DNA of 64,000 nucleotides from an uncultured bacterium (lineage in GTDB: Bacteria > Hydrothermota > Tepidihabitantia > Tepidihabitantales > Tepidihabitantaceae): assembly GCA_964590395.1 (NCBI GenBank), contig CAZPVT010000021.1, positions 1,329-65,328 of the forward strand, in the 5' to 3' direction. The notes beneath the pieces were generated by a model, which made no database searches, had not been told where the DNA came from, and was given only the letters and a program-made list of their open reading frames with translations. How positions within the stretch are numbered: position 1 is the first letter of the stretch; every line of letters begins with the position of its first letter. The translations under genes and the position numbers were made by a program. This document shows, piece by piece, positions 11,967 through 37,275 of this stretch.

Positions 11967-11981
11967 AGTGATGGCGTTTTT

Positions 11982-12755: not shown

Positions 12756-12761
12756 CCGGTT

Positions 12762-16172: not shown

Positions 16173-16236
16173 AGGTGGGTAAATTATGAGACGAAAACAG
16201 TTGACAATGGGTTGTAATAAATCTATAATTAACATT

Positions 16237-16779
16237 ATGCCCAGCGGTTTTGGGTACACGCAGGGGTTTACCCTGGTTGAACTGCTGGTGGTCATTTCTG
16301 TTCTGGGAATTCTCCTTGCCTTTCTTGTACCGACGATGATCTCCCGGGTCGCAACCAATGCCCGGCGCACTGTAACTCAGCAGGAGATGAATGTGCTCCG
16401 CGAAGCGATTATGGGTAATCCAGACCTGCGCGTCGGTGGCGAGATCGCAGGGTACGGATTTAAACAGGATGTCGGCAGGTTGCCGCGGGATCTGGTGGAA
16501 CTGGCAACCAGAAATCCGTTTGAGGGTATGTATGCTCCAAGGATGTATGTGGGAAAGGAGACGCTGCCAGCTTGGGATCCCTACATCAAACGGGGATGGA
16601 ACGGACCTTATATCCGTGAGGATGGGCAGATGGGTTATCTATATGATGCCTGGGGAACCGAATATCGCTTCTTGGTGGAAAATAACGAGACAGTAGGTTT
16701 GGTGAGTGCTGGGCCAGACGGACTTTTCTGGGGTCAGCCCGGCGCAGTAAAAAATGATGACATAAGAGTCAGATTTTAA
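16237..16779 (+). CDS. GspG-like pseudopilin
   Basis: QG|FTLVELLVV; GWNGPYI...DAWG.EY...SAGPDG. Start moved to ATG 16237 because TTGACA-17-TATAAT occupies 16201-16229. Confidence 0.88.
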   Translation: MPSGFGYTQGFTLVELLVVISVLGILLAFLVPTMISRVATNARRTVTQQEMNVLREAIMGNPDLRVGGEIAGYGFKQDVGRLPRDLVELATRNPFEGMYAPRMYVGKETLPAWDPYIKRGWNGPYIREDGQMGYLYDAWGTEYRFLVENNETVGLVSAGPDGLFWGQPGAVKNDDIRVRF

Positions 16780-16789
16780 GGGGGGGAGA

Positions 16790-17599
16790 GTGAAAAGCAA
16801 TGGCAAGGATAGCGGGCTAACCCTGATTGAACTGCTGGTTGTGATTATGATTCTCAGCCTGATTCTTACCGCGGCGATTCGAACCTGGGATGTTACCTTA
16901 GAACGGGGTAGATTTGAGCAGACCCGACAGAAACTCGACCGCCTTGCCAAAGTTATTAGCGGTGACCCGGATTATGTTGTCGAAGGGATGAGAGCGGATT
17001 TCGGCTTTGTCGGTGATATGGGAGCTTTGCCGAGGAGCCTGAGTGACCTTACCACCAAGCCCAGTTGGGTAACTCCCCCGGAGAGCAGTCGCTGGCGCGG
17101 ACCTTATATCAAATCAACGTTTTCGGAGTCGCCAGAGGGCTATCGTATAGATGGTTGGGGGGACACGATAATTTTTAGCCGAGACAGTCTTTTCCTAAGG
17201 AGTTATGGTGGAGGAGGTTTAGTCGACCGGCAGAAATGGCTAACAAGACCGCTGGGTTACAGTTTAAATGATTTACTCCACAATTTGGTTACCGGAATCG
17301 TTCTGGATCAGCGAGGGGTACCCCCACCGGATACACTTTTACCCCGTCTGGTAGTGCAGTTAGAGTATCCACGCCAGGGTGTTTTATACCGGGATTCTTA
17401 TACCCCGGCAGCCGGAAGTAACGGAATGTTTGAGTTCCGGGATGTCCCGCAGGGAGTTCAAATACTCAGGGTTATGTTCTGGTATTATTATCCGCCGCCA
17501 CCACGGTGTGATACCGTTGTAAAGAATGTGGTGGTTTTCCCGCGCGCTGGGGCGCGAGGTATTGAGGTTAGATTAAATTTAGATTGGAATAACCCGTGA
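16790..17599 (+). CDS. pilin/pseudopilin-like protein
   Basis: SG|LTLIELLVV; DFGFVGDMG.LP, WRGPYI, DGWG. Confidence 0.87.
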   Translation: MKSNGKDSGLTLIELLVVIMILSLILTAAIRTWDVTLERGRFEQTRQKLDRLAKVISGDPDYVVEGMRADFGFVGDMGALPRSLSDLTTKPSWVTPPESSRWRGPYIKSTFSESPEGYRIDGWGDTIIFSRDSLFLRSYGGGGLVDRQKWLTRPLGYSLNDLLHNLVTGIVLDQRGVPPPDTLLPRLVVQLEYPRQGVLYRDSYTPAAGSNGMFEFRDVPQGVQILRVMFWYYYPPPPRCDTVVKNVVVFPRAGARGIEVRLNLDWNNP

Positions 17600-17607
17600 G
17601 GTGTAAT

Positions 17608-18729
17608 ATGAAAAAGCCGTTCAATGGGTTTACCCTGATGGAACTTTTAGTGGTTTTGCTGATCATCGGGATTTTAAGCACAGTGGCACTACGTACGATT
17701 GATGCAACCCGGGACCGTTCTCTGTTTGACCAGACAACCAAGGAGATGCGGGAGTTGGTGAATGCAATGGTGGGTAATCCAGAGATTACTGCTAATGGTC
17801 ATCGGATTGATTTTGGCTTTTTTGGTGATATGATGAGATTGCCCAATGATTTACGGGAACTGGTGGAAAATACTACCAATTCTCCCAACTGGCATGGTCC
17901 TTATCTCCGGCGCGAGCTTCTCCAAGATTCCATCGGCTATCAGTTTGATGCTTGGGGAAATCCGTACACTTACAACTCAGTCACCGGAACAATCGCAACT
18001 CTGGGCAACGGCAAGTTTCCAATGACGATGAGAGTAGTTGATTCAATTCCCCATTTGACGAACAACACCATCACCGGTAATATTACTGATGCAGAAAACA
18101 ATCCTCCGGGCGAGAAGGCCCCAACCGTGGGGGTTTATCTGTATTTACCAAACGGGACCGTCTATTTCACCCGGCCAGATGCAGGTGGTTATTATGAATT
18201 TACGCCCGCGACACATGGTCCTATTCCGGTCGGACATCACAAGATTACCGCGAAGCGCCCGGGTGGTGATTCAATTGTTAAGTGGATTACTATTGTGCCG
18301 CGGAGTAAGTCAATTATTGATTTTCGTTTTACCAAGTCTTTTCGGAACTACCTGCAGATAGTCGGGGCACCGGTACTTTCCGGTGACAGTTCCGGCTTTA
18401 CCATAAAAATAGTAAACCCGGGCGGTGATCCTGATACCGTGAGATGGATTAAGTTTCAGGATGCTCCGGATAGTGCGTATATGACCTGGCTGTACATCCG
18501 CAATCACGAGCAGCGACAATGGGAATATAATCCGCGACCGGGAAAGGGAGATTCCTTTAACATTATGCCCTCGTTTTTGGTCGTTCAACCGAACAGCGAA
18601 GAGATCGTTGAATTCAGTTTTTACAACTTTACCAAGACACCTACCGGTGGTGACAAAAGAAACATCTTTAATGAGTTGTTTAGATTGCGATTTAGCGATG
18701 GCTCGGAATTTAATGTCCGGCCGCGATGA
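17608..18729 (+). CDS. large pilin/pseudopilin-like protein with C-terminal beta-sandwich domains
   Basis: NG|FTLMELLVV; DFGFFGDM.RLP, WHGPYL, DAWGNPY. Confidence 0.87.
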   Translation: MKKPFNGFTLMELLVVLLIIGILSTVALRTIDATRDRSLFDQTTKEMRELVNAMVGNPEITANGHRIDFGFFGDMMRLPNDLRELVENTTNSPNWHGPYLRRELLQDSIGYQFDAWGNPYTYNSVTGTIATLGNGKFPMTMRVVDSIPHLTNNTITGNITDAENNPPGEKAPTVGVYLYLPNGTVYFTRPDAGGYYEFTPATHGPIPVGHHKITAKRPGGDSIVKWITIVPRSKSIIDFRFTKSFRNYLQIVGAPVLSGDSSGFTIKIVNPGGDPDTVRWIKFQDAPDSAYMTWLYIRNHEQRQWEYNPRPGKGDSFNIMPSFLVVQPNSEEIVEFSFYNFTKTPTGGDKRNIFNELFRLRFSDGSEFNVRPR

Positions 18730-18751
18730 GATTTTGACATAAGGAGGCAAA

Positions 18752-20356
18752 TTGGCAACTAAAGTCTTTGGCGGGGGTGGTAAAGGCACCCTGTGTATTG
18801 ATATCGGCTCCAATTCGGTGAAATTTGTCAAACTGGAGGGTGGTAGGGTTTTAGATTACGGCTTGAAAGAGATCGGCGAGGCTTTTGATGTGCCCTCCAT
18901 TTTGCGGGAGCTGATCAAGGATTATCGGCCACGGGAGGTTTATACCTTCGTTTCCGGCCCCTCGGTGAGTGTACGTCAGGCACCGTTCCCCAAAATGAAC
19001 CGTCGAGAACTCAAGGATGCGATACTACTGCGTTTGGACAAATATTCCCCATTTACACTGGATGAGGCGATTTTTGACTTTAAGACCCTTGGACCGGTAC
19101 GCGAGGCGGGAGCAATCAAAGACAATGTGATGGTTATTGCTGCGCGCAAGGATATTGTTTCCGATCACATCTCCACCTTGCGTAAGGCAGGGTTAGAACC
19201 TTCAGCGATCAGTGTTGTGCCCTTTACCCTACACGCGGCAGCAAGGAAATTCGGGCGGGTAAAGCCTGATGAGACGATCTGTCTTTTGGACATCGGGGCG
19301 GAATTTACCGATATGGTATTTATGAAAGGAGAGCGGCTGGATTTGGCACGTACTGTTACTGCCGCCGGGAATGCGATTACTGAAGCAATGACCGTGGCTA
19401 TCACTACTGAAGAAGGTCAGTTGGCGCTGGATGCCTATGACGCAGAGGAACTAAAGCGAAAGTACGGTATTCCACCGGAGGATTCCACAGAGCGTTTGCC
19501 TTCCGGGATTATGATCAAACGGCTGTCGATACTCCAGCGGCCGGCTTTAGAGCGATTTATTGCCGAAGTCAACCGTTCCCTTGATTATTACCGCCGGGAG
19601 TTCGGAGAACAGAAGATCGATCGGCTACTGATCTGCGGTGGAACCGCGGCATTGAAAGGGTTAAGGGAGTATCTCCAGACAAGTCTGGGCATACCAACCG
19701 AGGTCTTCGATCCGTTCAAGGATTTTGGATTGTATAAGAGAGGAGTGACACCAGAGGAGGAAATCGGTCACCGGCTGGTAGCGGCACTCGGGTTGTATTA
19801 TGACCATACCGCGGTTGATCTGTTACCGGTGGAGATGAAAGCCGGTCAGTACATTGCCCGGGACATCAGGATGATGACGGTTGGTGGGATATTCTGGGCG
19901 GGGTTGCTGATACTGGGTTATATCTTGGTTGCGGGTTGGTCAGGAATTTCCCGGGCTGCGGTTATGCGATTGAGAAACGAGATTAAGGCGACTGAGGAAC
20001 AGAATCGGACCTATTTTGAATTGGAAAAGGAGATTGCCGATTTAGAGGCAAGACAGCGGGCATTGACGGGTGTTGTTGGCGAGGTTATGCCGGCAGTACC
20101 GGTGATGGCAAAGGTATCAACGATAGTTCCTTTGAATATCCAACTGAACACATTTACCCTGAGTAACCGGACGAATATCAAGTTGACCGGTGTGGTCAGT
20201 GGCGAGCCACATCTTTTAGATGTCGACTTGGCACAGTTTTTAATCGACCTCGAGCGCAGTCCACTTTTTAAGCAGGTGCAGTTAGTTTCCAAGAACCGTA
20301 GTAGCCTGCAGGGTGAGACGGTTCTGGAATTTGAAATCCAGTGTGTTACGGAGTAG
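18752..20356 (+). CDS. pilM: PilM-PilN fusion (type IV pilus assembly)
   Basis: Actin-like IDIGSNSVK, LDIGAEFT, ICGGTA; then VDLLP (PilN INLLP-like), TM helix, coiled coil and LERSPLFKQV PilN-like domain. Confidence 0.85.
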   Translation: MATKVFGGGGKGTLCIDIGSNSVKFVKLEGGRVLDYGLKEIGEAFDVPSILRELIKDYRPREVYTFVSGPSVSVRQAPFPKMNRRELKDAILLRLDKYSPFTLDEAIFDFKTLGPVREAGAIKDNVMVIAARKDIVSDHISTLRKAGLEPSAISVVPFTLHAAARKFGRVKPDETICLLDIGAEFTDMVFMKGERLDLARTVTAAGNAITEAMTVAITTEEGQLALDAYDAEELKRKYGIPPEDSTERLPSGIMIKRLSILQRPALERFIAEVNRSLDYYRREFGEQKIDRLLICGGTAALKGLREYLQTSLGIPTEVFDPFKDFGLYKRGVTPEEEIGHRLVAALGLYYDHTAVDLLPVEMKAGQYIARDIRMMTVGGIFWAGLLILGYILVAGWSGISRAAVMRLRNEIKATEEQNRTYFELEKEIADLEARQRALTGVVGEVMPAVPVMAKVSTIVPLNIQLNTFTLSNRTNIKLTGVVSGEPHLLDVDLAQFLIDLERSPLFKQVQLVSKNRSSLQGETVLEFEIQCVTE

Positions 20357-20359
20357 ACT

Positions 20360-20935
20360 ATGAAACTAATTGAAAGAAGGGTAGTTCTCATCGGAATAGT
20401 TATTTATGTCGTTTTGGGGATCGGCTTTTGGTTTCTGCTTTATCAGCCAAGGTTAAATGCCCGGCAGAAAACTGTTGCTGAGATAAAGGAGTTGCAGAAA
20501 CAACTGGATGAAACCAAGGCACGGATTGCCCAGATGCCCAAATTAAGAGCGAAGAAAGAGCAGTTGGGGATGGAGATAGCCGGCATCTGGGAGCGGGTCG
20601 TTCCCCGTTCAGAGATGCTGGGACTTTTCCGGCAGCTGGCACAGGAGGCAGAGCGCCAGCGGGTACGTTTTTTAGAGGTCGCTCCCCCCGGTTTGGATAC
20701 GCTTTTGGAAGAGGAGGGGCCGAGTGCCCAAGTTCGGCCGGTACCGTTTATGGTAACGGTTCAGGGACGGTACTTGGATATCGGCCGGTTTGTTGAGGGT
20801 CTTGCACAGTACCCATATTTCGTGCGCGTTCCTGATTTTGATATCAATGCTCGTGAGGATATCCGGCCAGAGGTCGAGGCTAAGATGCTGGTTAATATCT
20901 ATGCGTCCAGTCTGGCGGGCAGGAGAGGTTTGTGA
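20360..20935 (+). CDS. pilO: type IV pilus assembly protein PilO
   Basis: N-terminal TM, coiled coil, VTVQGRYLDIGRFVEGL; follows pilMN. Confidence 0.85.
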   Translation: MKLIERRVVLIGIVIYVVLGIGFWFLLYQPRLNARQKTVAEIKELQKQLDETKARIAQMPKLRAKKEQLGMEIAGIWERVVPRSEMLGLFRQLAQEAERQRVRFLEVAPPGLDTLLEEEGPSAQVRPVPFMVTVQGRYLDIGRFVEGLAQYPYFVRVPDFDINAREDIRPEVEAKMLVNIYASSLAGRRGL

Positions 20936-21498
20936 GACGAATTATTATTTTGGTTGTTGTCGTCGCGATGGTAGTGCTGGGGGCCGTGCTCTTTTTACGT
21001 AAGCCGAAAGCCAGTTCAGCTAGTTCAAAGAAAAAGACCACGCAGACAGAATCGGCTTCAGCCACCGAGCAATCAAAATCTCGGGGACGCAGCGCGGGCA
21101 AAACAGCAGGCAGGGTTAAAGCAAAGACCAAAGAGGAGCGTGCGGCAGAACGAAAGCGTATCCGCCAAGAGGAGAAGCGAAGAAGAAAAGAGTTGAAGCG
21201 GCGGGAACGGGAGAGAAAGCGGATGCTGAAGTATGCGCGTAGTCGTCGGGGCAAAAGAAAAACCGGAAGGAAGGGTACTTACTATGTAGTTAAGGCGATA
21301 GTCTCGTTAGGGGACGAGAGTTATGCCCTGATCGATAGTCGCCGGGTTCGAGTTGGTGATGTGGTAATGGGAAGAAAAATTGTAGCAATTCAGTCCGACC
21401 GGATCGAGGTAGAGGCATTTGGACGTCGTACTACGATCAGGGTGGGAGAGAGTCTATTGCCAATGAGTTATTTTACTAGGAAAAGTGGAAGAATTTAA
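20932..21498 (+). CDS. hypothetical membrane-anchored protein, very basic, with PilP/GspC-like beta domain
   Basis: TM helix, Lys/Arg-rich helix, C-terminal ALIDSRRVRVGD...IVAIQSDRI. Confidence 0.6.
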   Translation: MRRIIILVVVVAMVVLGAVLFLRKPKASSASSKKKTTQTESASATEQSKSRGRSAGKTAGRVKAKTKEERAAERKRIRQEEKRRRKELKRRERERKRMLKYARSRRGKRKTGRKGTYYVVKAIVSLGDESYALIDSRRVRVGDVVMGRKIVAIQSDRIEVEAFGRRTTIRVGESLLPMSYFTRKSGRI

Positions 21499-21516
21499 AA
21501 AAGAGAAAGGAGTGTT

Positions 21517-21978
21517 GTGAGGCAGAGATTTTTAGTAATTTTAGCACTGGTAGTGGCGGTGCTGGCGGTCGTTACCCTGGTTCGATCAAAACCTTCAGTT
21601 GCCCCTCAGATTATTACAAATGAAGTGACAACCGAGGTTACGAGACGGGCTAAAGGTAAGGCAGCCAAATTGAAATCGAGGGTTCAAGAGGCGGTAGCAC
21701 CGCTGACCACGCCGAAGGACTTTTCCTCGCCGGTTTATACCGAACCGATTGAATGGGGTAGTGATCCATTCGTGCGTGACTGGATGCTGATGAGTGAGGT
21801 CGCTAATCTTAATCTTAGGGCAATCACAGTAACCAGTGATGGTGGTAGTGCCCTAATCAATGACCAGATAGTCCAAGCTGGTGATTTAATCAGTGGTAAA
21901 AAGGTGGTAAGTATTGAACCCGACCGGGTAACGCTGGAACAGGGTGGTAGGACGTTTACTTTGATATTGGGGGAGTAA
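21517..21978 (+). CDS. PilP/GspB-like membrane-anchored protein
   Basis: TM helix, W.SDPF, ALINDQIVQAGD...VVSIEPDRVTL; precedes the secretin. Confidence 0.65.
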   Translation: MRQRFLVILALVVAVLAVVTLVRSKPSVAPQIITNEVTTEVTRRAKGKAAKLKSRVQEAVAPLTTPKDFSSPVYTEPIEWGSDPFVRDWMLMSEVANLNLRAITVTSDGGSALINDQIVQAGDLISGKKVVSIEPDRVTLEQGGRTFTLILGE

Positions 21979-21981
21979 AGT

Positions 21982-23577
21982 ATGAAAAACACAAAAACAG
22001 TTTTTGTCGCAGTAATTTTTTCTCTTTTCGCCGCAGGTATTATTCAGGCACAAGTAGTCGTTAAGGATGTCGCGGTAGATAAACTGCTGGATGGGGTGCG
22101 AGTGTCGATCGCGTGCATTGGCAATCCCAATATTAGTTCGTTTGTTACCCAGGATCCGCCGGCTATTGTGATTGACATTATGGATGCGAGTGCACGGCTG
22201 ACACAGGAAAGGATTGTTTCTTCTTACTATCCGGTAACCGCAGTAACAGTTAAGCCGAGTGAGGCGATAAATGGAGTACGGGCGACCATTATGCTCAAAA
22301 ATATGATGCGTCATAAAGTTACTAATGAGAACGGGGTGATTGCGGTTCAGGTTGGCACACAACCACTACCGCCACCACCGGCGCCGATGCCGGAAGACCA
22401 GTTCAGCGGAAAGCCGTCCCTGACACTTTTAGTTCAGGATGCTGAGGTTACCAGCGTTTTACGGATGCTTGCTCGCCAGTTCGACCTTAACCTGATGGTA
22501 ACCCAGGATGTAAAGTCAGTAGTCAGCGTGAGATTGAATGAGGTACCGTTGCGGTCTGGTCTGGAAGCGCTGGTGAAAGCCGCGGGGTGTAATATGGTGG
22601 AGGATCGAACCGGTGTGTTGATTGTGAAGCCCTTGAAGAAGGAGATGTACGGAGAGCTACAGACGCGGGTATTTAATTTGGATTATGTTGAGGCCGATGA
22701 CGCACTTAAGGCGATTAAGAAGACGCTGTCACCGTTAGGAGAGGCGGTTCAAGGGTTCCGCCGGGTGGGGACCAAGGGCGGTGGTATGGAACGGAGTGCG
22801 GTGTTAGTGGTAAGTGATGTTCCCGAAGCATTAGAAGAGGTGGCGAAGGTAATTGCGGAGTTAGACCGTCCGATGGCCCAAATTGCTATTGAGGCGAAGT
22901 TTATTGAAACTACCCGTTCATCCCAAGACCGGTTCGGAATTGACTGGACACCGGTTGCATCATTCAGCACCGAGTTACCCGAGATTGGTGATGAAGTGGC
23001 TGTTCCTGTCATTATCAAGGAGATGCTGGTCGGCAAGATTTCCTTTTCTCAATTTACCGCGGCTATTGAGTTGGTGATGTCCCGAGGCAGGTCGCGGGTA
23101 CTTGCCAATCCGAGGACAGTCACACTGGATAATCAAACCGCATCGGTGAGTATGGGACTGGATGTACCGATTCGTGAGGTTAATAAGGATCCGAATACCG
23201 GTGAAATTACTTATACTTGGCGGACACGGTCGATTCCGATAAAAATGGAGGTTACCCCACATGTAACTTCTGACGGAATGATTACAATGAACGTGAAACC
23301 ATCGGTTTCTGCGATCACCGGCTGGGTCGGTTCGGCAGATGACCGACAACCGATAGTGGCAAAGCGTGAAGCAGAGACACAGGTCAAGGTTGCAGAGGGT
23401 GAGGTAGTAGTAATCGGGGGACTGGTGAAGGATGAAGAGACGAAAAATGTCGGTAAAATTCCGTTACTTGGCGACATTCCATTTCTTGGCCATCTATTTA
23501 AGAAGACCTCGATTGAGCGGACGAAGAGCGATCTGATGATATTTATCATTCCGCACATTATTAATCCGGAGGGGTAA
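21982..23577 (+). CDS. pilQ: secretin PilQ (AMIN-like, N-domains, secretin domain)
   Basis: QIAIEAKFIE, LANPRTVTLDNQTA, VTPHV, VIGGL, KIPLLGDIPFLG.LF. Confidence 0.93.
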   Translation: MKNTKTVFVAVIFSLFAAGIIQAQVVVKDVAVDKLLDGVRVSIACIGNPNISSFVTQDPPAIVIDIMDASARLTQERIVSSYYPVTAVTVKPSEAINGVRATIMLKNMMRHKVTNENGVIAVQVGTQPLPPPPAPMPEDQFSGKPSLTLLVQDAEVTSVLRMLARQFDLNLMVTQDVKSVVSVRLNEVPLRSGLEALVKAAGCNMVEDRTGVLIVKPLKKEMYGELQTRVFNLDYVEADDALKAIKKTLSPLGEAVQGFRRVGTKGGGMERSAVLVVSDVPEALEEVAKVIAELDRPMAQIAIEAKFIETTRSSQDRFGIDWTPVASFSTELPEIGDEVAVPVIIKEMLVGKISFSQFTAAIELVMSRGRSRVLANPRTVTLDNQTASVSMGLDVPIREVNKDPNTGEITYTWRTRSIPIKMEVTPHVTSDGMITMNVKPSVSAITGWVGSADDRQPIVAKREAETQVKVAEGEVVVIGGLVKDEETKNVGKIPLLGDIPFLGHLFKKTSIERTKSDLMIFIIPHIINPEG

Positions 23578-23634
23578 TTTACCCGAGCACTTGATCGTGG
23601 AAATGAGCGTGGGTGATAGTTCTCATTACCGTGA

Positions 23635-24771
23635 ATGAATATTGATGAGCTGTTACGTTATGCGGCAAAGTATGGTGCGTCAGACTTACACATAACCGCA
23701 GGAAATTCTCCGGTCATCCGGGTTAACGGCCGGTTAAAAAAAATTCCAGGACCAGCACTGAGTGGTGAGGATGCAGAGGCGCTGGTATATTCTATTTTGA
23801 ACGATGAACAGCGGGACGCAGTAGAACGGAAAAGGGAGATCGACCTTTCATATACCTGGGGGAATGCGACCCGGCGAGTTTTACCTGAGTCACTGACTTT
23901 GGAATATATTACTCCGGAGCGGGTCAGGGCAAGGGTTAATGTGTTTTTGGACCTGAACGGGGTGGGTGCGGCTTTCCGGATTATCCCGGCAAAAATCAGG
24001 ACACTTGAGGAATTACCAGCACCTTCCTCGGTCGCCGAGTTAACAAGGTGCCACTCTGGATTGGTTTTGGTTACCGGACCAACCGGGTGCGGGAAGTCAA
24101 CAACCCTTGCCAGCATGATTGACCTGATTGACCAGGAGCGGGCAGTGCGGATAATTACCATTGAGGATCCGATTGAGTACATCTTCCAGCCGCACAACTG
24201 TCTTATTAGCCAGAGGGAGATCGGTACCCATTCCCAGTCATTTGCTTCTGCATTGCGCGCCTGTCTACGTGAAGACCCAGACGTCATTCTGTTGGGTGAA
24301 ATGCGAGATCTCGAGACCATCAGCCTTGCTCTGACCGCAGCAGAGACCGGTCATTTGGTGCTTTCTACACTGCATACTAATAATGTTGCGGAGACGGTTG
24401 ACCGGGTGATTGATGTATTTCCCGCGGACCAGCAGGAGTATGTTCGGCAGGTGTTTGCCAGCGTGGTTCGGGGCATAATTTCTCAGATACTTTTACCTCG
24501 CCGTGATGGCCGAGGCAGGGTTGCAGCGATGGAGGTGCTAATCGCCACTCCGGCAATCAAAAATTTGATCCGGGAGGCAAAAATTCATCAGATTCCGTCA
24601 TTGGTGCAGACCGGCTCCCAGTATGGGATGCAGACGATGGATCAGTGTCTTGAGATACTTTTGAGCCGGAACCTGATTGCGCCGGAAATTGCTTATGCGG
24701 TGGCGAATGAGAAAAAATTATTTGTGCCTCCTGAGGCACCGGTTTCGGTGCCCGGTCCAAAGGGGCAGTGA
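23635..24771 (+). CDS. pilT: pilus retraction ATPase PilT
   Basis: GASDLHI, GPTGCGKST, TIEDPIE, LREDPDVILLGEMRD, AIKNLIRE, GMQTMD. Confidence 0.95.
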   Translation: MNIDELLRYAAKYGASDLHITAGNSPVIRVNGRLKKIPGPALSGEDAEALVYSILNDEQRDAVERKREIDLSYTWGNATRRVLPESLTLEYITPERVRARVNVFLDLNGVGAAFRIIPAKIRTLEELPAPSSVAELTRCHSGLVLVTGPTGCGKSTTLASMIDLIDQERAVRIITIEDPIEYIFQPHNCLISQREIGTHSQSFASALRACLREDPDVILLGEMRDLETISLALTAAETGHLVLSTLHTNNVAETVDRVIDVFPADQQEYVRQVFASVVRGIISQILLPRRDGRGRVAAMEVLIATPAIKNLIREAKIHQIPSLVQTGSQYGMQTMDQCLEILLSRNLIAPEIAYAVANEKKLFVPPEAPVSVPGPKGQ

Positions 24772-25568
24772 TTTGGTTCATTTTTGCCCTACTGGGGCTG
24801 GTCTTCGGTAGCTTTTTTAATGTTTGCATCTGGCGGATTCCTCGCGGTGAGTCAATAAATTACCCCCCATCTCATTGTCCCAAGTGTAAGAGACAAATTC
24901 GGGTATATGATAATATTCCACTACTCAGTTACATACTGCTCAAAGGAAGGTGCCGTAACTGCGGTCAGCCGATATCACCACGATACCCGGTTATCGAGGT
25001 AATAACGGCGTTGCTCTTTGTCGGTAGCTATGCCCAATTTGGTTTACACTGGCAGTTAGTCCGCGTGCTGGTTTTTATCGGTTTTCTCATCGTTCTTGGT
25101 GGGATTGATTTTGATCACGGAATTTTACCGGTAAAGTTATCTTTGGCGGGGTCAATTATCGGGTTGCTAACTGCGCTATTACCGGTCTTTGATTTTTCGA
25201 TAACAGCGGCTTTATGGGGCGGGTTAATCGGCGCGGGTTTTGTCCTTTTTGCTTGGGCGTTGTGGCGCTTTGTGCTTGCCCGGCCCTTTGCTCGACTCGG
25301 GGTAAAAAATAGGGAAGGGATGGGCTGGGGTGACCTTCCATTTGCGGGAATGATCGGTATCTTCGCCGGACCAAAGGGAATGACGGTTGGTCTGGCGATA
25401 GCGGTCTTTGCCGGTGTTTTTTGGGGTTTACTGGCAAGAGCGATGGGCAGATTCAAGAAGGGACAGGAGATGCCATTTGGCCCTTTTCTTGCGCTGGGAG
25501 GAATTATTGGTCTGTTTTTCGGGGGTGGGATAGCAGACTGGTACTGCCGGTTGGTGATCGGTCGTTAG
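24768..25568 (+). CDS. pilD: prepilin peptidase PilD
   Basis: GSFFNVCIWRIP, two CxxC motifs, GMGWGD, PFGPFL. Confidence 0.95.
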   Translation: MIWFIFALLGLVFGSFFNVCIWRIPRGESINYPPSHCPKCKRQIRVYDNIPLLSYILLKGRCRNCGQPISPRYPVIEVITALLFVGSYAQFGLHWQLVRVLVFIGFLIVLGGIDFDHGILPVKLSLAGSIIGLLTALLPVFDFSITAALWGGLIGAGFVLFAWALWRFVLARPFARLGVKNREGMGWGDLPFAGMIGIFAGPKGMTVGLAIAVFAGVFWGLLARAMGRFKKGQEMPFGPFLALGGIIGLFFGGGIADWYCRLVIGR

Positions 25569-25569
25569 G

Positions 25570-26541
25570 CTAATCCTCCTGAATGTGAAACTCAACGATA
25601 TCCCGGTCCCTCAAAATATGTTGCCTTTCTACCCGTTGACCAGAGAAGCCGTAGTTATTCCAGAGCCGGGCATAAGCAAGTTTACGGGCGAAATCCTTGT
25701 GTAAATGATATGCCGCATCAATTACCGTTGCCCCGATTTTAAGGACAACCGGGTCTTCAAGATCAGGAGGATGGCCGGGTTTTTTGGTGTAAACCCGGAT
25801 GATTTTTAACTCCTCAAAGACCCGAGATTTGAACTGCTCTAACCCCTGCCCGGTTACAACCGAGACTAAAATTATTTCCAAATCACTCAGCAATTCTTTT
25901 AAAACGGCAAGTCTTGCCGGTGCATCTTGGTCATCCACCTTTGTACCTAGCCGGATAATAGGTTTTACCGAAAACCCATCTTCCTGGTTAAACCCGATTC
26001 TGTTTTGTCTCAGTAGTTGCTGTATTTGTTCGGTTGTTTCGAGCACGCTGTCGTCGGATAAATCAATTGTCCAGCAGAGCAGGTCTGCGGTGCGTAGGAT
26101 ATGAAACAGCCAGGTAGGTGAGTCTTGTACCATTGGTGGTGTATCAATCAGTTGAATTTGGATATCTTCAAATGGCATCATACCGGCGAGTGGACGGGTG
26201 GTGGTAAACGGATAAGCGGCAACCTCGGTTGCCAAACCGGTGAGCCGGTTAATCAGGGCGGATTTGCCGCTGTTAGGTGCACCAAACACTACCACCTGTC
26301 CTGCACCCTGTTTTTCAACCGAATACCAGTCAGTTCTTTTGCCACTGCTTTTGGCTGCGGAGAGTTCCCGTCGTAGTTTGGCAATCCTGGTTTTGATATC
26401 CGCCTGCATCTTCTCAGTGCCTTTGTGTTTAGGAATAGTCGCAAGCATCTCCTCAAGACATAGCAGTTTCTCCTCCGGTGTTTTTGCTTGGCGAAACCGT
26501 TCTTCAGCCTGTTTATATTCAGGAGTCAAGTTTGCCGGCAT
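25570..26541 (-). CDS. DRG-like OBG-family GTPase with TGS domain
   Basis: MPANLTPEY, PKHKGTEK, GAPNSGKS, YPFTT, DTPP, IIRVYTKKPG, C-terminal TGS. Confidence 0.9.
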   Translation of the reverse strand: MPANLTPEYKQAEERFRQAKTPEEKLLCLEEMLATIPKHKGTEKMQADIKTRIAKLRRELSAAKSSGKRTDWYSVEKQGAGQVVVFGAPNSGKSALINRLTGLATEVAAYPFTTTRPLAGMMPFEDIQIQLIDTPPMVQDSPTWLFHILRTADLLCWTIDLSDDSVLETTEQIQQLLRQNRIGFNQEDGFSVKPIIRLGTKVDDQDAPARLAVLKELLSDLEIILVSVVTGQGLEQFKSRVFEELKIIRVYTKKPGHPPDLEDPVVLKIGATVIDAAYHLHKDFARKLAYARLWNNYGFSGQRVERQHILRDRDIVEFHIQED

Positions 26542-26562
26542 TGTGGAGCAGAGCAGTTTTAA

Positions 26563-27834
26563 TTAAAGCAGTTTTTGTTCCGACACATCCATAAATAATA
26601 GACCTGAGATCAACTTCGGATAGAAATCAGTTGACTTCTGGGGCATCCTCTCCAATTTTTGGGCGAGTGCCTGCACCTGTTCGGGACGCGTGGGGTTTAA
26701 AAACAGCGCTAAGGCAAATTCACCAGAATCAACACGGTTAACGGTATCCTGCCAGTAACGTTCATAGGCGACCACAGATTCTACATCGCCGGGCTTGATG
26801 TCAAACACATTTTCAATTACCAGCCGATGGAGAATGGCAACATCCAGTTTTCGGTATTCCGGGGCTTTATCTTTCAATAGACTATCCAGCAGGTTGTGGT
26901 CTTTAAGGATTAGAAGATAACTGTGGTTTTTACCCAAGTAAATTATAAAGGCGTGGCGATTTTGGTTTTGTATCAGCGCTGAGTGTGCTGTCTCGTCCGA
27001 TACCTGCTGGACAGTAAAGAATTGAGTCAGTTGCTTGAGCGCATCCTGCGGGGAGAGTTTTACCGTGCGGAGCAAGCGGTGGGTGGGCAGAATCATCAGA
27101 CCGGGGTCGGTGATTTTGAAAAATGCCGCGGTCTTGAAGCGCAGTGCGGCGTTTGCCGGCAGGGAAAGTTTTTTCTCCATCTCTTGGCGATAGGTAAGGG
27201 CGGTTTCATAACGATGATGGCCATCCGCGATTAAGAGCACCCTTTCTTTGAACAACTGGTACAGAGCATTCACCTGTGCCGGTTCAACCATTCGCCATAA
27301 TCGGTGAGTTACGCCATACTCATCAACCGCTTGTAACAGCGGTGTTTCAGGAGTTTGGAGCAGACGGTCGATCTCGTCCCTTTCATCCGGATAAAGGAGA
27401 AATATCTGTTCATAGTCCTTCTGGGTGGCGCGCAGTAGGTTCAGACGGTCAACTTTAGGTCCGGAATGGGTGAACTCGTGGGGCAGAACCGTGCCCTTCT
27501 CAAACTCCTCCACTCGGATTGCACCGATAAAGCCCCGGCGTTTCAGGGCGCGGCTGTCAACAGTGAACTCCTCCTCTAAGATATAGAAAGCGGGGATATT
27601 ATCTTCAATCAGCACACCGGTACTGAGCCATTCCTGACAGGTGCGGGCAGAACTCTCGTAGGGATTTTCATCTTTGGGCAGAATCAGTCGGACGAAGCTG
27701 TGGGGATGTTTTTTAAGATAAGCCTCCTGCATTTTCGGGGTGATTTTGTCATAAGGTTGAGTTATCACCGCGTTGATTTCGTTGATGCGTGCGGGATTAT
27801 AACGGATAGCGGGAAACGGTCGGACATCAGCCAT
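26563..27834 (-). CDS. DUF1015 family protein
   Basis: PYDKI, PHEFT, IADGHHRYETA, MPQKSTDFYPK. Confidence 0.9.
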   Translation of the reverse strand: MADVRPFPAIRYNPARINEINAVITQPYDKITPKMQEAYLKKHPHSFVRLILPKDENPYESSARTCQEWLSTGVLIEDNIPAFYILEEEFTVDSRALKRRGFIGAIRVEEFEKGTVLPHEFTHSGPKVDRLNLLRATQKDYEQIFLLYPDERDEIDRLLQTPETPLLQAVDEYGVTHRLWRMVEPAQVNALYQLFKERVLLIADGHHRYETALTYRQEMEKKLSLPANAALRFKTAAFFKITDPGLMILPTHRLLRTVKLSPQDALKQLTQFFTVQQVSDETAHSALIQNQNRHAFIIYLGKNHSYLLILKDHNLLDSLLKDKAPEYRKLDVAILHRLVIENVFDIKPGDVESVVAYERYWQDTVNRVDSGEFALALFLNPTRPEQVQALAQKLERMPQKSTDFYPKLISGLLFMDVSEQKLL

Positions 27835-28737
27835 TTATACTCCCTTCAGCGCATCGCGCACCTTCTCCGCGATTCCGATGCCGGCGCGATATTGGCCCTC
27901 TTTGGTCTGGGCACCGATATGGGGTGTGCCAATCACCTGGGGCAGGGAGAAAAGTTTAAAGTCATCGGGCGGTTCCTTTTCGAACACATCAAGTGCCGCA
28001 CCGGCAACCTGTCCGGACTGAATTGCCTCATAGAGTGCCACCTCATCAATTACGCCACCACGCGCACAGTTGATGATATAGACACCCTTCTTCATTTTGG
28101 CAAATGCTTCACGGTTCAACAGATGGGTCGTTTCCGGTGTCTTGGGAATATGGAGCGAGATGAAGTCTGATTTTGCCAGCAGTTCATCTATATCGCATAA
28201 CTGGCCACACTCCGGTTTTACGCCAGGCAAATCTTTGACCAAAACATTCATTCCCAGCGCCTGAGCCCTCTTTGCCAGTTCGGTGCCGATTCTGCCTGAA
28301 CCGATGATGCCCAAGGTTTTGCCGAAGAGTTCTATTCCTTTAAATGCCTTTTTCTCCCACTTGCCGGAGCGCAAAGAGGCGGTCGCCTGCGGAATAGCAC
28401 GGACAAGGGCAAACATCATACCCAGTGCCAGTTCCGCAACCGAGACCGATGTCGCCTCAGGCGTATTGACAACCTTTATACCCCTTGCTTCGGCCGCCTT
28501 TCTGTCAACATTATCCAGACCAACACCCGCGCGGCCAATTACCTTTAAGTTCTTGCCGGCATTAATCACCTCAGCGGTAACTTTGGTGGCACTGCGGACG
28601 ATTATCGCATCATACTCGGGAATCACCTGTAACAGTTCTCCCGGGGTCAAGCCGGGCTTTTCGTTAACGGTAAACCCGGCATCTTTAAGGAGTTTTACTC
28701 CTTCAGGGGCAATCGGGTCGGTAATAATTATTTTCAT
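27835..28737 (-). CDS. serA: D-3-phosphoglycerate dehydrogenase (short form, no ACT domain)
   Basis: IVRSATKVT, GRAGVGLDNVD, GIIGSGRIG, INCARGG, TPHIGAQT; promoter TTGACT-17-TAAAAT. Confidence 0.85.
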   Translation of the reverse strand: MKIIITDPIAPEGVKLLKDAGFTVNEKPGLTPGELLQVIPEYDAIIVRSATKVTAEVINAGKNLKVIGRAGVGLDNVDRKAAEARGIKVVNTPEATSVSVAELALGMMFALVRAIPQATASLRSGKWEKKAFKGIELFGKTLGIIGSGRIGTELAKRAQALGMNVLVKDLPGVKPECGQLCDIDELLAKSDFISLHIPKTPETTHLLNREAFAKMKKGVYIINCARGGVIDEVALYEAIQSGQVAGAALDVFEKEPPDDFKLFSLPQVIGTPHIGAQTKEGQYRAGIGIAEKVRDALKGV

Positions 28738-28815
28738 TTTTTACTCCCTTCTGGTTTTGAAATTGCATAATTTTAGCCAACAACGCACTATAAGTCAACC
28801 CGATTTATACCCAAG

Positions 28816-28878
28816 GAGATTGTTGTGACTTTGCCACTTGCCAAGAGCAAAGCGTCACTATCGCTCCTTGCAATGACA
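28816..28878. repeat. degenerate REP-like palindromic element
   Basis: GAGATTG...CGCTCCTTGCAATGACA resembles the copies at 29325 and 48873. Confidence 0.6.
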
Positions 28879-28989
28879 CTCTCCCTGCTCCTGGCTCCTG
28901 TCTTTAGAACTCTAAACATCACAGCCGGATTCCTCTAGCCATTTCTACTCCCAATCCACCACTTGAGCCTATTCCCAGCCAGCCCTGAA

Positions 28990-29145
28990 ACGACACCGCC
29001 GACCCTGTGCACCACATCCCTGCCCGGCACCAGCACCACTATTCCCGAAACCACGATCAGAACCCCTATTTTCACCTTAACCAAAACTACCATCCACACC
29101 ACTTTTACTACTCTTATGGGGACGGTTCTGGGGACGGGGTCAAAA
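28990..29145. repeat. degenerate 12-bp-period array (AC in register on the plus strand)
   Basis: AC at 28990+12n in 12 of 13 consecutive units. Confidence 0.8.
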
Positions 29146-29261
29146 AACGCAAAAATTTTAAAATAACCCATTGAAAAATAAAACGATAAATCAAATTAAC
29201 CCGAGATAGATTTTTTAACCTATAGGTTAAATTTTATTCTGCCCTGCCTTCCATTTTTCTT

Positions 29262-29384
29262 TGTCATTCTGAGCCCGAAGGGCGAAGGAATCCCTTTGCG
29301 GGTAGTCCGGGCTTTATCGCATATAGATTGCTTCGTCGCTAACGCTCCTCGCAATGACAAAAGGGGGGGTGCCTCGCAATGACA
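29262..29384. repeat. REP-like palindromic elements (TGTCATT...AATGACA family)
   Basis: TGTCATTCTGAGCCCGAAGGGCGAAGGAATC (29262) faces AGATTGCTTCGTCGCTAACGCTCCTCGCAATGACA (29325-29359); extra CCTCGCAATGACA at 29372-29384. Confidence 0.75.
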
Positions 29385-29503
29385 GGAAAAAGGGCGTGTC
29401 TTGTGATGATGAGAAAACTCCAGCAATGGCAGAATAGGTGGTGACTCCAGATGACAGAAATAAGGGTTGATATCAGGCTTGATTTTTAGTATAATAAAAC
29501 CTT

Positions 29504-29782
29504 ATGGCCCTTAAACAGGTATATCAGGCAGAGAATGAGTTGATGGCAAATACGATTAAGGATCTGCTTGAGCAGAGCGGAATTCCGGCGCTGGTTCACT
29601 CTTTTCAGATTCCGGCTTATGACGGAGTGGCACAGGTGATGCGGCCAGCCTGGGGTGAGGTTCTGGTTGAGGAGGAGGATCTGGCGCGGGCAAAGGAGAT
29701 TATTAACGGGTTTATTACCGGTGAAACAGTGCAGGATGGAGAGGCGGACAGTTCAATAACCGAGGGTGATGAGCGGTCTTAA
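29504..29782 (+). CDS. DUF2007-like putative signal-transducing protein
   Basis: VYQAENELMANTIKDLLEQSGIP...VLVEEEDLARAKEII; promoter TTGATA-17-TATAAT 8 nt upstream. Confidence 0.8.
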   Translation: MALKQVYQAENELMANTIKDLLEQSGIPALVHSFQIPAYDGVAQVMRPAWGEVLVEEEDLARAKEIINGFITGETVQDGEADSSITEGDERS

Positions 29783-29993
29783 TCCAGTTGGCAGGTTGCT
29801 GATTGTTGCCGGGGTTTTTTTGATTCTGCTGGGCGGAGCGATAATTTTGTTCGGTCGGTTTGGTTTTTCTCGCCTGCCCGGTGATATTTTGATTGAACGG
29901 AAGAACTTTACCATCTATATTCCGATTGTCTCTTCGATTATCCTTTCCCTTGTTCTTACCCTGATTCTGAGTCTGGTTTTTCGGCGATGGTAA
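29766..29993 (+). CDS. DUF2905 small membrane protein
   Basis: RLPGDILIERKNFTIYIPIVSSIILS signature. Confidence 0.88.
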   Translation: MMSGLNPVGRLLIVAGVFLILLGGAIILFGRFGFSRLPGDILIERKNFTIYIPIVSSIILSLVLTLILSLVFRRW

Positions 29994-30028
29994 TTTAAAT
30001 GAATTAGATGAGGAGGAGAAAAGGCTAT

Positions 30029-35469: not shown

Positions 35470-37275
35470 TCAGGATTCGTTTCTTAGCCAGTGATAGATG
35501 CTTTCTGCAAGGGCTTTGCCGATACCTTTCACATGGGCGATTTCTTCCTTGGAGGCACCGCGGAGTTTAGACATTGAGCCAAAGTGTTGGATAAGAGTCC
35601 GGTGGCGGGCAGGACCGATGCCAGGAATCGCTGCCAATTGAGACCGTAGAGCATTTTTCGTCCGAAGTCTGCGGTGCCACGAGATAGCAAAACGGTGGGA
35701 TTCGTCGCGGATAAGTTTTAAGAGTTTCAACGCCGGTGAGGTGGGAGGAATTGTTATTTCGCGACCGTCAAGGTAAGAGAGGGTGTCAGTGCGTTTGGCA
35801 AGACCGATGATCGGAATTTCTTGGTCGTACTGATGATAGGCGTTAATCGCTGCTGAAAGTTGACCTTTTCCGCCGTCAACGAGTACTAAGTCCGGTAGGG
35901 GCAGGTTTTTTTCCAGAAGGCCGCGCACACGACGGGCAAGGACCTCGGTGATCATCGCGAAGTCGTTCGGGCCAGAGACATTTTTTATTTTGAAAATCCG
36001 ATACTGATTTCTCAGTGGTCTGGTGTCCTGAAAAACCACCACCGAGCCTACCGCATTTGTTCCCTGGGTATTGGAGATATCGACACCTTCAATTCGGCGG
36101 GGAGGGGAACTTAATTCCAATATTGCCTGTAGTTCCCGGTTTGCTTTGGGGATACGGTCAGATAGATGGGATAACTCAACAAGTGCCTTTTCAGCATTGT
36201 GTTGGGCTAACTCCACCAGTTTGAGTTTCTCACCTCTTGTTGGCACGGTGAATCTCACCCGGCGTTTTCTATTTTCCGCAAAGACCTGTTCAAAAATGTT
36301 AAATGCGGTTATCGGCACCGGTAGGACAATTTCATCGGGCAGATCAGCGGTATGGGTGTAAACCGAACGCAGAACCCCTTCCAGAATTTCTTCATCAGGC
36401 ACGGTTTTATCGGCGGAAAGTGAGTACTGTTCTCGGGCAACGATTCTGCCCTCGCGGATTCTAAAGATTACTGCTACCGCTACCCGTTGTCCTTTTGCCA
36501 ATCCGATGACATCACGCGCGGTCCGATCGTTTGTTATCACCTGCTGATGTCGGACGATTTCCCGTAGGGCAAGTAGTTGATCCCGCAGGGTTGCCGCCTG
36601 TTCGTAGCGCTGGGTACGGGCTTCCTTCCACATCCTTTGTTCCAGCTCGCCGATCAATTTGTCTGACCTTCCAGCGAGAAACTCAATCACGTCATTAACG
36701 ATTTGATGGTAAGTGGTTTGATCGATATTGCCAATACAGGGAGCAAGGCAGCGCTTGACTTGAAAGTTAATACATGGTTGGTGAATCTTTTCGTCGGGAA
36801 GGCTTTTTTTGCAGGTGCGGATTTTAAATATTCTGCGCACCGCACGTAGTGCCCGGCGTAATTCCTTAGCACTGGTATAAGGTCCAAACAGTACTGAGCC
36901 GTCGGGTTTGATATTGCGGGTAATGAAAATTCGCGGGAACTTTTCGGTTGTGGTGATTTTTAGATACGGATATTTTTTATCATCCCGTAGTCGAACATTG
37001 AAGCGCGGTTTTTTGATTTTGATCAAACTTTCCTCTAAGAGCAGTGCCTCAACCTCGGAGCGTGTGACGATTGTCTCGCAGTCAGCAACCCGTCGGGTTA
37101 GGGCGGTAAGACGGGGTTCATTCTGAGGCTGGAGATAGCCACGGAGCCGCTCCTTTAAATCCCGTGCTTTACCGATGTAAAGCACCTTGCCCTGGGCATC
37201 CTTTAAAAGATAAACGCCTGGTTCGTTGGGAGCGCACCTTACCTTTTCGGCAAAATTGGCTTTCTGATTGGACAT
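35470..37275 (-). CDS. uvrC: excinuclease ABC subunit C
   Basis: PGVYLLKD...LYIGKA GIY-YIG domain, RIEGVDISN, DGGKGQL, RDESHRFA, HhH. Confidence 0.98.
   Translation of the reverse strand: MSNQKANFAEKVRCAPNEPGVYLLKDAQGKVLYIGKARDLKERLRGYLQPQNEPRLTALTRRVADCETIVTRSEVEALLLEESLIKIKKPRFNVRLRDDKKYPYLKITTTEKFPRIFITRNIKPDGSVLFGPYTSAKELRRALRAVRRIFKIRTCKKSLPDEKIHQPCINFQVKRCLAPCIGNIDQTTYHQIVNDVIEFLAGRSDKLIGELEQRMWKEARTQRYEQAATLRDQLLALREIVRHQQVITNDRTARDVIGLAKGQRVAVAVIFRIREGRIVAREQYSLSADKTVPDEEILEGVLRSVYTHTADLPDEIVLPVPITAFNIFEQVFAENRKRRVRFTVPTRGEKLKLVELAQHNAEKALVELSHLSDRIPKANRELQAILELSSPPRRIEGVDISNTQGTNAVGSVVVFQDTRPLRNQYRIFKIKNVSGPNDFAMITEVLARRVRGLLEKNLPLPDLVLVDGGKGQLSAAINAYHQYDQEIPIIGLAKRTDTLSYLDGREITIPPTSPALKLLKLIRDESHRFAISWHRRLRTKNALRSQLAAIPGIGPARHRTLIQHFGSMSKLRGASKEEIAHVKGIGKALAESIYHWLRNES

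Follow-up and report, generated by a model that had tools for sequence, protein, structure and literature searches.

The 64,000-nucleotide stretch of DNA analyzed here (hereafter called the window; positions 1,329 to 65,328 of contig CAZPVT010000021.1, or C21:1329-65328 in our contig numbering) comes from an uncultured hot-spring bacterium of the Hydrothermota and carries two members of a family of about 40 dispersed, modular intergenic elements. Each element is composed of a 16-base-pair (bp) palindrome, an AT-rich leader of approximately 65 nucleotides (nt), a conserved head that includes C4/G4 tracts, and a body of 150 to 330 nt. The body is free in sequence except that the trinucleotide GGT recurs every 12 nt on its G/T-rich strand. 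From these data we infer a constraint with a 12-nt step that tolerates nearly any intervening sequence, that is polar, started by a head and preceded by a palindrome, and that relies on a lineage-specific anchor. The genome that contains the window comprises 1,831,294 bases in 35 contigs and is 99.7% complete.

A family of elements with a 12-nucleotide register

The body of the element called array #2 (28990-29145, minus strand; coordinates refer to the window unless a contig is named) consists of 13 units of 12 nt. On the plus strand, these thirteen 12-mers run from ACGACACCGCCG to ACGGGGTCAAAA, and 12 of the 13 start with AC, the sole exception being GGCACCAGCACC at 29026. On the minus strand, which is G/T-rich, the units take the form N10-GT and mostly N9-GGT. 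The A/C-rich strand leads to GGGGTC and next to AT-rich sequence (29140-29214). A first-pass annotation, made from the sequence alone, had listed the same coordinates and units, and our reexamination matches it exactly. It had also described array #2 as a second, independent copy that obeys the grammar of array #1 but is inverted relative to it, and had placed an AT-rich leader next to it. Both descriptions hold, with the leader located on the 5′ side of the G/T strand.

A sliding scan of the window, in which at least 8 of 10 hits at an exact period of 12 were demanded, identifies only two places. One is an AC signal at 28978-29169 (9/10), which makes array #2 the only AC array in the window to reach at least 8/10, and the other is a GT signal at 11713-11892 (8/10) that corresponds to array #1. 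Tandem Repeats Finder, run at its lowest score, returns 18 rows in the window with none at either array, and thus the label 'cryptic' that had been given to them is apt.

When extended to the whole genome, the period-12 scan recovers 12 AC and 18 GT arrays. The control periods of 9, 10, 11, 13, 14, and 15 each yield no AC array, and they yield a single GT array at period 9 and otherwise none. The period-12 signal is far beyond chance. Arrays of GG (14) and CC (8) likewise peak at period 12 only, which identifies GGT, read on the G/T-rich strand, as the true anchor. The AC that had initially been taken as the anchor does recur from unit to unit, but the conserved feature is GGT (ACC on the opposite strand) and so is larger than AC alone. 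After merging, there are 29 distinct strong arrays with 10 to 28 units each. These arrays, together with the approximately 40 heads described below, bear out the earlier proposal that the two window arrays represent a genome-wide element class.

A profile of 558 units, read on the G/T strand, has strong signals at positions 10 to 12 (G 0.74, G 0.84, and T 0.88) and a weak T-N-T-G-G pattern at positions 1 to 5. The third anchor base is occasionally C (0.07) and the anchor can thus be written as GGY. The variable positions are strongly biased in composition (A 0.16, C 0.11), and 506 of the 558 units are distinct.

On the G/T-rich strand, each array opens with one of two conserved heads. The type A head is a CTGCCC..GGGCAG hairpin followed by GTATYGGGGAYGGTATCC, and the length of the loop of this hairpin differs by 1 to 2 nt between copies. 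The type B head reads TTTTTTGACCCC(A/G)TCCCC...AAC(C/G)GT and is the type carried by array #2 (TTTTTTGACCCCGTCCCCAGAACCGTCCCC; 29118-29147, minus strand), where it overlaps the first body units. Regular expressions for the two heads match 24 type A and 17 type B sites in the genome, of which approximately 3 and 1, respectively, proved to be spurious on inspection, and a few copies were added later. Among the 17 copies that match GAC[CT]CC[AG]TCCCC, 16 were aligned and 15 are true, and these are near-invariant for GACCCCATCCCC..AAC(C/G)GT. The 15-copy alignment also reveals conserved blocks in the type B leader.

The leader of array #2 (29148-29214, minus strand) is located between palindrome and head and is promoter-like, without a canonical sigma-70 match. 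The palindrome (TTAACCTATAGGTTAA, 16 bp, 29215-29230) is a candidate operator. Its pattern, TTAAC-N6-GTTAA, occurs 35 times in the genome versus approximately 2.1 times expected, and gaps of 2 to 5 and 7 to 10 nt give only 0 to 5 occurrences each. A head follows 21 of the 35 palindromes, at a distance of 82 to 85 nt in 21/21 cases. At the other end of the element (28840-28989, minus strand), the register fades, homology to a paralogue on contig C4 persists, and a REP-like piece, GTCATTGCAAGGAGCGATAGTGACG, is found inside. Array #1 (11703-11966, plus strand) is a type A variant that carries its G/T strand on the plus strand and its head, GGGCAGTATAGAGGACGGT, at 11732-11750. It starts 15 nt past the stop codon of a convergent gene.

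The first-pass annotation had suggested that the arrays share rules rather than sequence. This is correct for array #1 and array #2, as these are members of different subfamilies. Many of the arrays, however, are plain paralogues of one another. There are 18 homologous array pairs that align in register over 10 to 21 units with 68-86% identity, and the C4 paralogue of array #2 (L015) has a mean column identity of 83% over 423 columns with one gap of 36 nt (three units). The mismatch frequency in the 18 pairs is 5.7% for the anchor G and 7.7% for the anchor T, versus 27% for G, 29% for T, 39% for A, and 49% for C in the body. Because anchor mismatches are four- to five-fold below those of body G and T, the mutational stability of these two nucleotides does not explain the difference. 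The 12-nt register and its anchor are under purifying selection.

Adjacent units (lag 1) differ at 5.90 of the 9 variable positions, whereas units from different arrays differ at 6.08 and column composition predicts 6.06. Recent tandem duplication, such as would create a minisatellite, is ruled out given that neighbors are no more alike than units of other arrays, that nearly all units are distinct, and that Tandem Repeats Finder is silent.

The period-12 family is also a main cause of breaks in the assembly. Contig ends lie in these elements at C4:283, C8:5, C33:6, C11:66, and C12:1294 and at the ends of C17 and C35. Contigs C8 and C33 have an identical array in common, and one stretch of 77 nt terminates both C17 and C35 and recurs within the C4 array. 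Because so many contigs start or stop in period-12 elements, the copy number reported here is a lower bound.

Coding potential and comparison with known families

Array #2 itself is open in two frames, and for this reason the first-pass annotation noticed open reading frames (ORFs) on both strands. Both exist: a 67-amino-acid (aa) ORF at 28963-29166 on the plus strand, with Thr at each fourth residue, and a 78-aa ORF at 28935-29171 on the minus strand, with Val at each fourth residue. The annotation had left open the option that one of them encodes a low-complexity peptide, and in one related locus (L004) a frame behind an ATG likewise remains open through the entire array. We nevertheless set this option aside and give virtually no credence to the translation of either ORF. 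Stop codons within the arrays number 79/2232, 52/2203, and 190/2203 codons in the three frames of the G/T strand, and the column frequencies of the 558 units predict approximately 83 in the first frame and 54 in the second. Observed values are close to those expected, and therefore stops are not avoided. Moreover, 25 of 30 array rows have a stop in all six frames.

Comparisons between paralogues lead in the same direction. Among 114 substitutions in 68 paralogous unit pairs, 24 are at positions 3/6/9, 34 at positions 1/4/7, and 43 at positions 2/5/8, and an excess at the wobble (third) position is absent from every frame. The C4 paralogue of array #2 has ATA in place of the ATG of the 78-aa ORF and carries stops in all six frames. 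Thus, codon-level conservation of the 67-aa or 78-aa ORF, which had been named as evidence that would favor a peptide, is not seen. A translated element would also be at odds with the variation of 1 to 2 nt in the hairpin loop upstream of the type A head, and searches of Pfam with E values up to 1 give no match for 5/5 ORFs. Recoding of the stops was rejected because the genome, which carries 49 tRNAs in a count that includes tRNA-Sec, or 49 ordinary tRNAs plus tRNA-Sec in another, has no TAG or TAA suppressor. There is one selenocysteine tRNA (anticodon TCA; complement of 36543-36637 on its genome contig). In 11 arrays from a related family (199 units, described below), one open-looking frame has 12 stops versus 14.7 +/- 3.0 expected from column composition, and therefore those arrays are non-coding as well. 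The arrays in this genome are non-coding.

The first-pass annotation had also implied that the variable parts of the units might be captured from foreign or self sequences in the manner of a CRISPR array. This proposal is not supported. A blastn search with array #2 and its leader (28960-29250) yields no match among 50,697 phage and 72,556 plasmid records, where only contiguous matches are considered. Self matches of the arrays with at least 20 identities number 20, versus 1 to 4 in column-shuffled controls, but most of the self matches listed are further heads or arrays of the family, and the rest are a few short G/T-rich stretches. In addition, both window arrays are letter-identical in contigs of two hot-spring metagenome runs, from 2017 and 2019. 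This identity is weak evidence for stability, given that both runs may be the source of this DNA.

The period-12 elements resemble CRISPR arrays in that an AT-rich leader precedes a polar array, and a genuine CRISPR-Cas locus is present in the same genome. However, CRISPR arrays have nearly identical direct repeats of about 23 to 50 nt between which unique spacers of comparable length lie, whereas the period-12 arrays have neither and are built instead from 12-nt units with three conserved positions. The real CRISPR arrays of this genome have a repeat of 36 to 37 nt and a spacing of 65 to 69 nt. Furthermore, approximately 39 of the 40 period-12 loci are without adjoining cas genes, no protospacer-like matches were found, and the leader-proximal units are the conserved ones.

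The CRISPR-Cas locus of this genome is of type III-B and is located on contig C33 (L097; 205-3710 and 3844-11415). It includes an 876-aa Cas6-RT-Cas1 fusion between two CRISPR arrays (4 and 3 copies), together with Cmr3 and multiple RAMP genes, and a second RAMP cluster is found on contig C8 (22596-24733). One type B element directly follows a CRISPR array on C33, and both the CRISPR repeat and the heads have a CCCC..GGGG hairpin. We take this adjacency as a coincidence, as the repeat end is found in only one of five array-bearing relatives and the match is weak (3 mismatches). A link to a reverse transcriptase (RT) was likewise rejected, since the only one in the genome is that of the Cas6-RT-Cas1 fusion. 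A viral link was rejected as well. The two head patterns match 2 and 16 stretches in viral contigs, and inspection of all 18 revealed no array behind any of them, which indicates that these are chance hits in coding DNA.

Other known classes fit no better. A search of Rfam with 18.7 kb of the window (11300-30000) yields 0 matches at E values up to 1, and the fold z-scores of the two window arrays are +2.0 and +0.1. TIGR arrays, in which short direct repeats alternate and a Tas protein is encoded nearby, differ by their 18-nt period, as given in a recent survey (10.64898/2026.10.21.760802), versus 12 only here; this comparison is by period, and Tas genes were not searched. The same survey of periodic entropy in prokaryotic intergenic DNA reports classes at periods of 5, 18, and 60 to 79 nt and a few at 7, 8, and 10 nt (10.64898/2026.10.21.760802). 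It removes multiples of 3 where lag 3 also peaks, and no period-12 class is named in its text, supplements aside (10.64898/2026.10.21.760802). A full-text search of the literature, again supplements aside, found no published description of arrays of this kind. With dispersed repeats, the period-12 elements share only copy number and empty sites, and not structural criteria. Because the elements fail the tests for CRISPR, VIPR, TIGR, tandem-repeat, coding, and Rfam families, and because no description was found in the literature, we rate the element class as categorically new as a sequence class. A selfish origin is quite possible, and the functions considered below are proposals.

Dialects in relatives and genomic context

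The type A head has 21 representatives in this genome versus 0 to 2, with one mismatch allowed, in each of 30 relatives. In another family of the same order, the 12-nt arrays behind this head obey other rules, [C/T]TAAT(T)NNN[G/A]GT. In a pattern search for these arrays, the counts from a backwards control equal or exceed the forward counts in two of four genomes (G024 and G027), as the motif reads alike backwards. For these two genomes, we relied on zero-mismatch rows and on the loci that were read rather than on pattern counts. At least 5 of the 11 related-family loci carry a TTGACA-16/17-TATAAT promoter approximately 95 nt upstream that reads into the array, and two of these score 12/12 in a sigma-70 scan.

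Within the genus, the element is patchy. In one same-genus genome, C/T-rich units, YCTTTNNNNNGT, come after a leader and head of type B. More broadly, a GT-N10 pattern (10 units, at most 2 mismatches) finds matches in 29 of the 151 genomes sampled across the phylum. The loci that were read include further dialects, namely GTCGCCAAYNAC, GTCRGCRTANNT, GTYGTTGTNGGG, GTGTTACGGGNN, and GTGATATNNNGG, located behind C4/G4 heads such as GACCCCGGGGAACGTCCCC. At one locus (L057, on G157:C5), a C-rich array of CTGCCNNCCCCG units in a 12-nt register abuts a GT-type array downstream, and thus two dialects are present in a single locus. The exact type A head is found in seven stretches of public contigs, two of them in metagenome-assembled genomes titled candidate division WOR-3 and five from other taxa; approximately nine chance hits are estimated for this search.

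The elements are typically located just upstream of gene promoters, and most point in the direction of the downstream gene and of the strand that is richer in G and putatively the leading one. For 20 of 29 arrays, the G/T strand runs in the same direction as the nearest ORF of at least 100 aa downstream, and for 23 of 29 it coincides with the G-rich strand of the surrounding 30-kb flanks. Ordinary sequence in these flanks has a very strong GC skew (0.06-0.24) and a keto skew of up to 0.14. The downstream genes are unrelated housekeeping and secreted-protein genes, which, judging from their translations, presumably include those for adenylate kinase, GyrA, and RbfA.

Downstream of array #2, and co-directional with its G/T strand, is a 300-aa ORF (27835-28737, minus strand) that we take to be phosphoglycerate/2-hydroxyacid dehydrogenase-like from a reading of its sequence. 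Its sigma-70-type promoter (TTGACT-17-TAAAAT, 10/12; 28770-28798, minus strand) is located beyond the element, and equivalent promoters precede its orthologues in element-free sister genomes. These orthologues, with 84-87% identity, are present in 6/6 same-genus genomes. None of the six sister loci has a palindrome, head, or period-12 run, and the maximum period-12 score there is 4-5/10 versus 9/10 here.

A similar history is apparent at the adk locus, where synteny is preserved in 6/6 same-genus genomes. In 5/5 sister loci that were fetched, only a short space separates the promoter of the divergent gene from the adk promoter, and the site is empty. Here, approximately 470 nt, comprising REP-like pieces, leader, head, and array, are located exactly between the two back-to-back -35 boxes. 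Because the sites are empty in sister genomes, the elements were gained or expanded in this lineage.

Copies of an unrelated, hairpin-forming dispersed repeat flank the array #2 element at 29245-29400. This REP-like repeat has the form GTCATTGCGAGG..GCGTTAGCGACGAAGCAATC..CGCAATGAC and is not part of the period-12 family. A DNA search of the genus with 28700-29500 gives 53 matches in this genome (G000), mostly to query positions 546 to 697. The REP-like repeat has dozens of copies here (for example on contigs C23, C4, and C22) and occurs also in two same-genus genomes, and it is often located directly upstream of period-12 elements. The window also includes two adjoining tandem arrays at 51434-52239 with a 126-nt unit (3.8 and 2.3 copies, 75-80% matches), which probably correspond to a repeated protein domain.

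Possible functions of the phased anchor

We tentatively favor, at somewhat less than an even chance, a model wherein the element functions as a transcribed, phased binding track for an oligomerizing protein. Transcription would start in the leader and proceed across the body, and the resulting RNA, with GGU every 12 nt, would serve as a low-specificity track for a nucleic-acid-binding protein with a 12-nt footprint. This protein might nucleate at the conserved head and oligomerize along the body. The family could then function as cis-acting leaders or sponge RNAs under the control of one regulator that binds the palindrome, and the anchor dialects might arise as track and protein co-evolve. 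We favor RNA over DNA because promoters read into the arrays of relatives, because the elements are oriented like genes, and because RNA tracks with an anchor plus free positions have precedent.

The logic might resemble that of the triplet repeats bound by TRAP, of CsrB, or of the filament formed by Vipr on GGY/NN RNA. TRAP binds (G/U)AG triplets in the Bacillus trp leader, with 11 repeats and a 5- to 6-nt period, whereas sponge RNAs of the CsrB/RsmZ type have irregularly spaced sites. In each of these systems, a short anchor recurs at intervals in otherwise free RNA that is multivalent for an oligomeric RNA-binding protein, either in a 5′ leader or as a stand-alone transcript. However, TRAP and CsrB sites are known from one or a few loci per genome with known partners, and the elements described here have an exact 12-nt spacing, extend to 28 units, and occupy about 40 loci.

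Several observations dampen our enthusiasm for this model. No candidate partner protein was found, and RAMP proteins (PF03787) do not co-occur with arrays among 31 genomes. A sigma-70 scan of 28700-29500 reveals no site within the array #2 leader, and the best match for array #1 (9/12) is approximately 85 nt upstream of its head. The G/T-strand RNAs are no different in folding from dinucleotide shuffles (mean z -0.25, with 13 of 29 above 0), and their minimum free energy (MFE) of -0.236 per nt is close to the background of -0.250, such that nothing marks a single-stranded platform. The element is absent from the corresponding loci of sister species, and therefore any function must be dispensable there. 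In addition, two dialects may share one genome, and array composition flips among close relatives, from G/T-rich here to C/T-rich in the same genus and A/T-rich in the other family. A single conserved partner would therefore have to tolerate these changes.

An alternative is that the functional form is double-stranded DNA, with one weak site per 12 bp. A protein would nucleate at the palindrome or head, spread as a nucleoprotein filament, and insulate or tune the adjoining promoters. The strongly over-represented palindrome at a fixed distance from the head, the lack of an RNA structure signal, and the absence of a canonical promoter from the array #2 leader are all consistent with this idea. 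So is the location of the elements directly upstream of promoters, as exemplified by the adk insert between back-to-back -35 boxes and by related loci with a like arrangement. There is a precedent for short phased sites in tubC, where 12-bp centromere repeats are bound by TubR, and in the heptad arrays bound by omega repressor. These resemble the period-12 arrays in that a small DNA-binding protein occupies phased sites cooperatively, sometimes at promoters, and tubC even shares the 12-bp period. However, they are true repeats in 4 to 10 copies on plasmids, whereas the arrays described here are chromosomal, keep 3 of 12 positions, and extend to 28 units. The strand asymmetry and the orientation bias (20/29 and 23/29) would be needless for duplex sites, perfect promoters read into the arrays of relatives, a 12-bp step does not keep in phase with the helix, and here too no candidate partner protein was found. 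We regard a duplex-DNA function as the less likely choice, albeit one with appreciable weight.

The elements could instead be selfish mobile or recombining repeats of the MITE, BIME, or BOX type, wherein register and anchor serve propagation, for example as subterminal enzyme sites or through priming on single-stranded DNA, with no function for the host. In common with the REP/BIME elements of enterobacteria, the BOX elements of pneumococcus, and MITEs, the family has tens of modular intergenic copies, empty sites, an association with promoters or terminators, and a tendency to break assemblies. Its approximately 40 copies have leaders and bodies that are 68-86% identical, its sister sites are empty at 6/6 dehydrogenase loci and 5/5 fetched adk loci, it is patchy within the genus, and its mosaic arrays are constantly associated with the REP-like repeat. 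What those families are not described to have is a non-repetitive body with a selected 12-nt register. Moreover, neither terminal inverted repeats nor target-site duplications are apparent at the adk junction, the one junction that was aligned, and the Y1 (RAYT) transposase family (PF01797), which recognizes REP hairpins, has 0 matches in this 99.7% complete genome, other transposase families not having been searched. The arrays are also identical in the 2017 and 2019 runs, and the steady way in which they face genes points to something beyond neutral insertion. Propagation alone is thus a rather improbable account of the family.

A reading of the A/C-rich strand as the functional transcript leads to Rho. 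Sites for Rho utilization (rut) have C residues spaced 11 to 13 nt apart. If transcribed, the A/C strand would make an ideal site of this kind, with YC every 12 nt, and the elements would then be Rho-dependent terminators for transcripts that arrive from the gene side. This strand is rich in C (0.37) and poor in G (0.11), presents ACC at an exact 12-nt spacing, and is nearly unstructured (MFE of -0.093 per nt versus -0.250 for background), and array #1 is located immediately behind its convergent gene as a terminator would be. However, a gene on the A/C strand precedes only about 9 of the 29 arrays, and array #2 is not among them. In relatives, either the head strand is the C-rich strand or neither strand is C-rich, so the idea does not unify the dialects, and the conserved head, leader, and palindrome would be left unexplained. 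These problems render Rho loading very doubtful.

Only marginally better in our view, and still highly unlikely, is the possibility that the arrays encode noncontiguous guide RNAs, in which a protein filament would hold the GGY anchors while the variable bases read a target. The model for this proposal is VIPR, whose vrRNAs have 9 to 16 tandem YNNGG units with a period of 5 followed by a conserved 3′ tail, and whose GGY/NN code is bound by a filament of the Vipr RAMP protein (10.64898/2026.04.26.720920). Both vrRNAs and the period-12 arrays have a fixed GGY with free positions, conservation by rule, a trinucleotide that varies with lineage, and a non-repeat handle at one end, and divergent VIPR systems also swap the fixed trinucleotide (10.64898/2026.10.21.760802). 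The anchor of the period-12 arrays is the trinucleotide of vrRNAs, and the conserved head resembles a handle. However, the period is 12 rather than 5, the units number 12 to 28 rather than 9 to 16, and the conserved part is 5′ rather than a 3′ tail. The vipr gene adjoins its array in phage, whereas here about 40 loci are dispersed along a chromosome beside unrelated housekeeping genes with no adjoining effector gene. The RAMP family PF03787, the model through which a link to Vipr was sought, was not detected in three relatives rich in arrays (96%, 95%, and 100% complete) and occurs in relatives without arrays; a divergent Vipr elsewhere in the genome may have escaped this model. The strongly biased variable positions provide little coding capacity, and searches for contiguous matches revealed no target in phages, plasmids, or the genome itself.

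Additional ideas were considered, none of which fits all dialects. These are G-quadruplexes, a sigma-54 promoter, the RNA polymerase pause consensus, RNase E sites, primase triplets (GTC/GTT), Chi- or KOPS-like polarity signals, cold-shock-protein sites, and boxA.

A related reading, which we consider unlikely as a whole, is that the arrays form the nucleic-acid half of a previously undescribed filament system of WOR-3 bacteria. In this system, a protein would polymerize in a strict 12-nt register on RNA (or DNA) whose sole fixed feature is a short lineage-specific anchor, beginning from the C4/G4 head, and thereby control or mark about 40 promoter-proximal loci per genome. If true, this would be the second code of the type 'anchor plus free positions' after VIPR, and one that is chromosomal, advances in 12-nt steps, and is independent of RAMP proteins.

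If the elements do function as a track, then bacteria can conserve a long non-coding element by its register alone, through 3 of every 12 positions. Such a signal escapes alignment, repeat finders, and RNA-family models, and indeed Tandem Repeats Finder, Rfam, and Pfam are all blank here. Should the selfish origin prove correct, a mobile element that keeps an internal phased anchor would itself be unusual. A protein with a 12-nt footprint offers a testable target. Because they occupy tens of sites close to promoters in a genome of 1.8 Mb, and because related dialects are found in other WOR-3 lineages, the period-12 elements may represent a substantial and unrecognized layer of regulation or genome structure in this uncultured thermophilic phylum.

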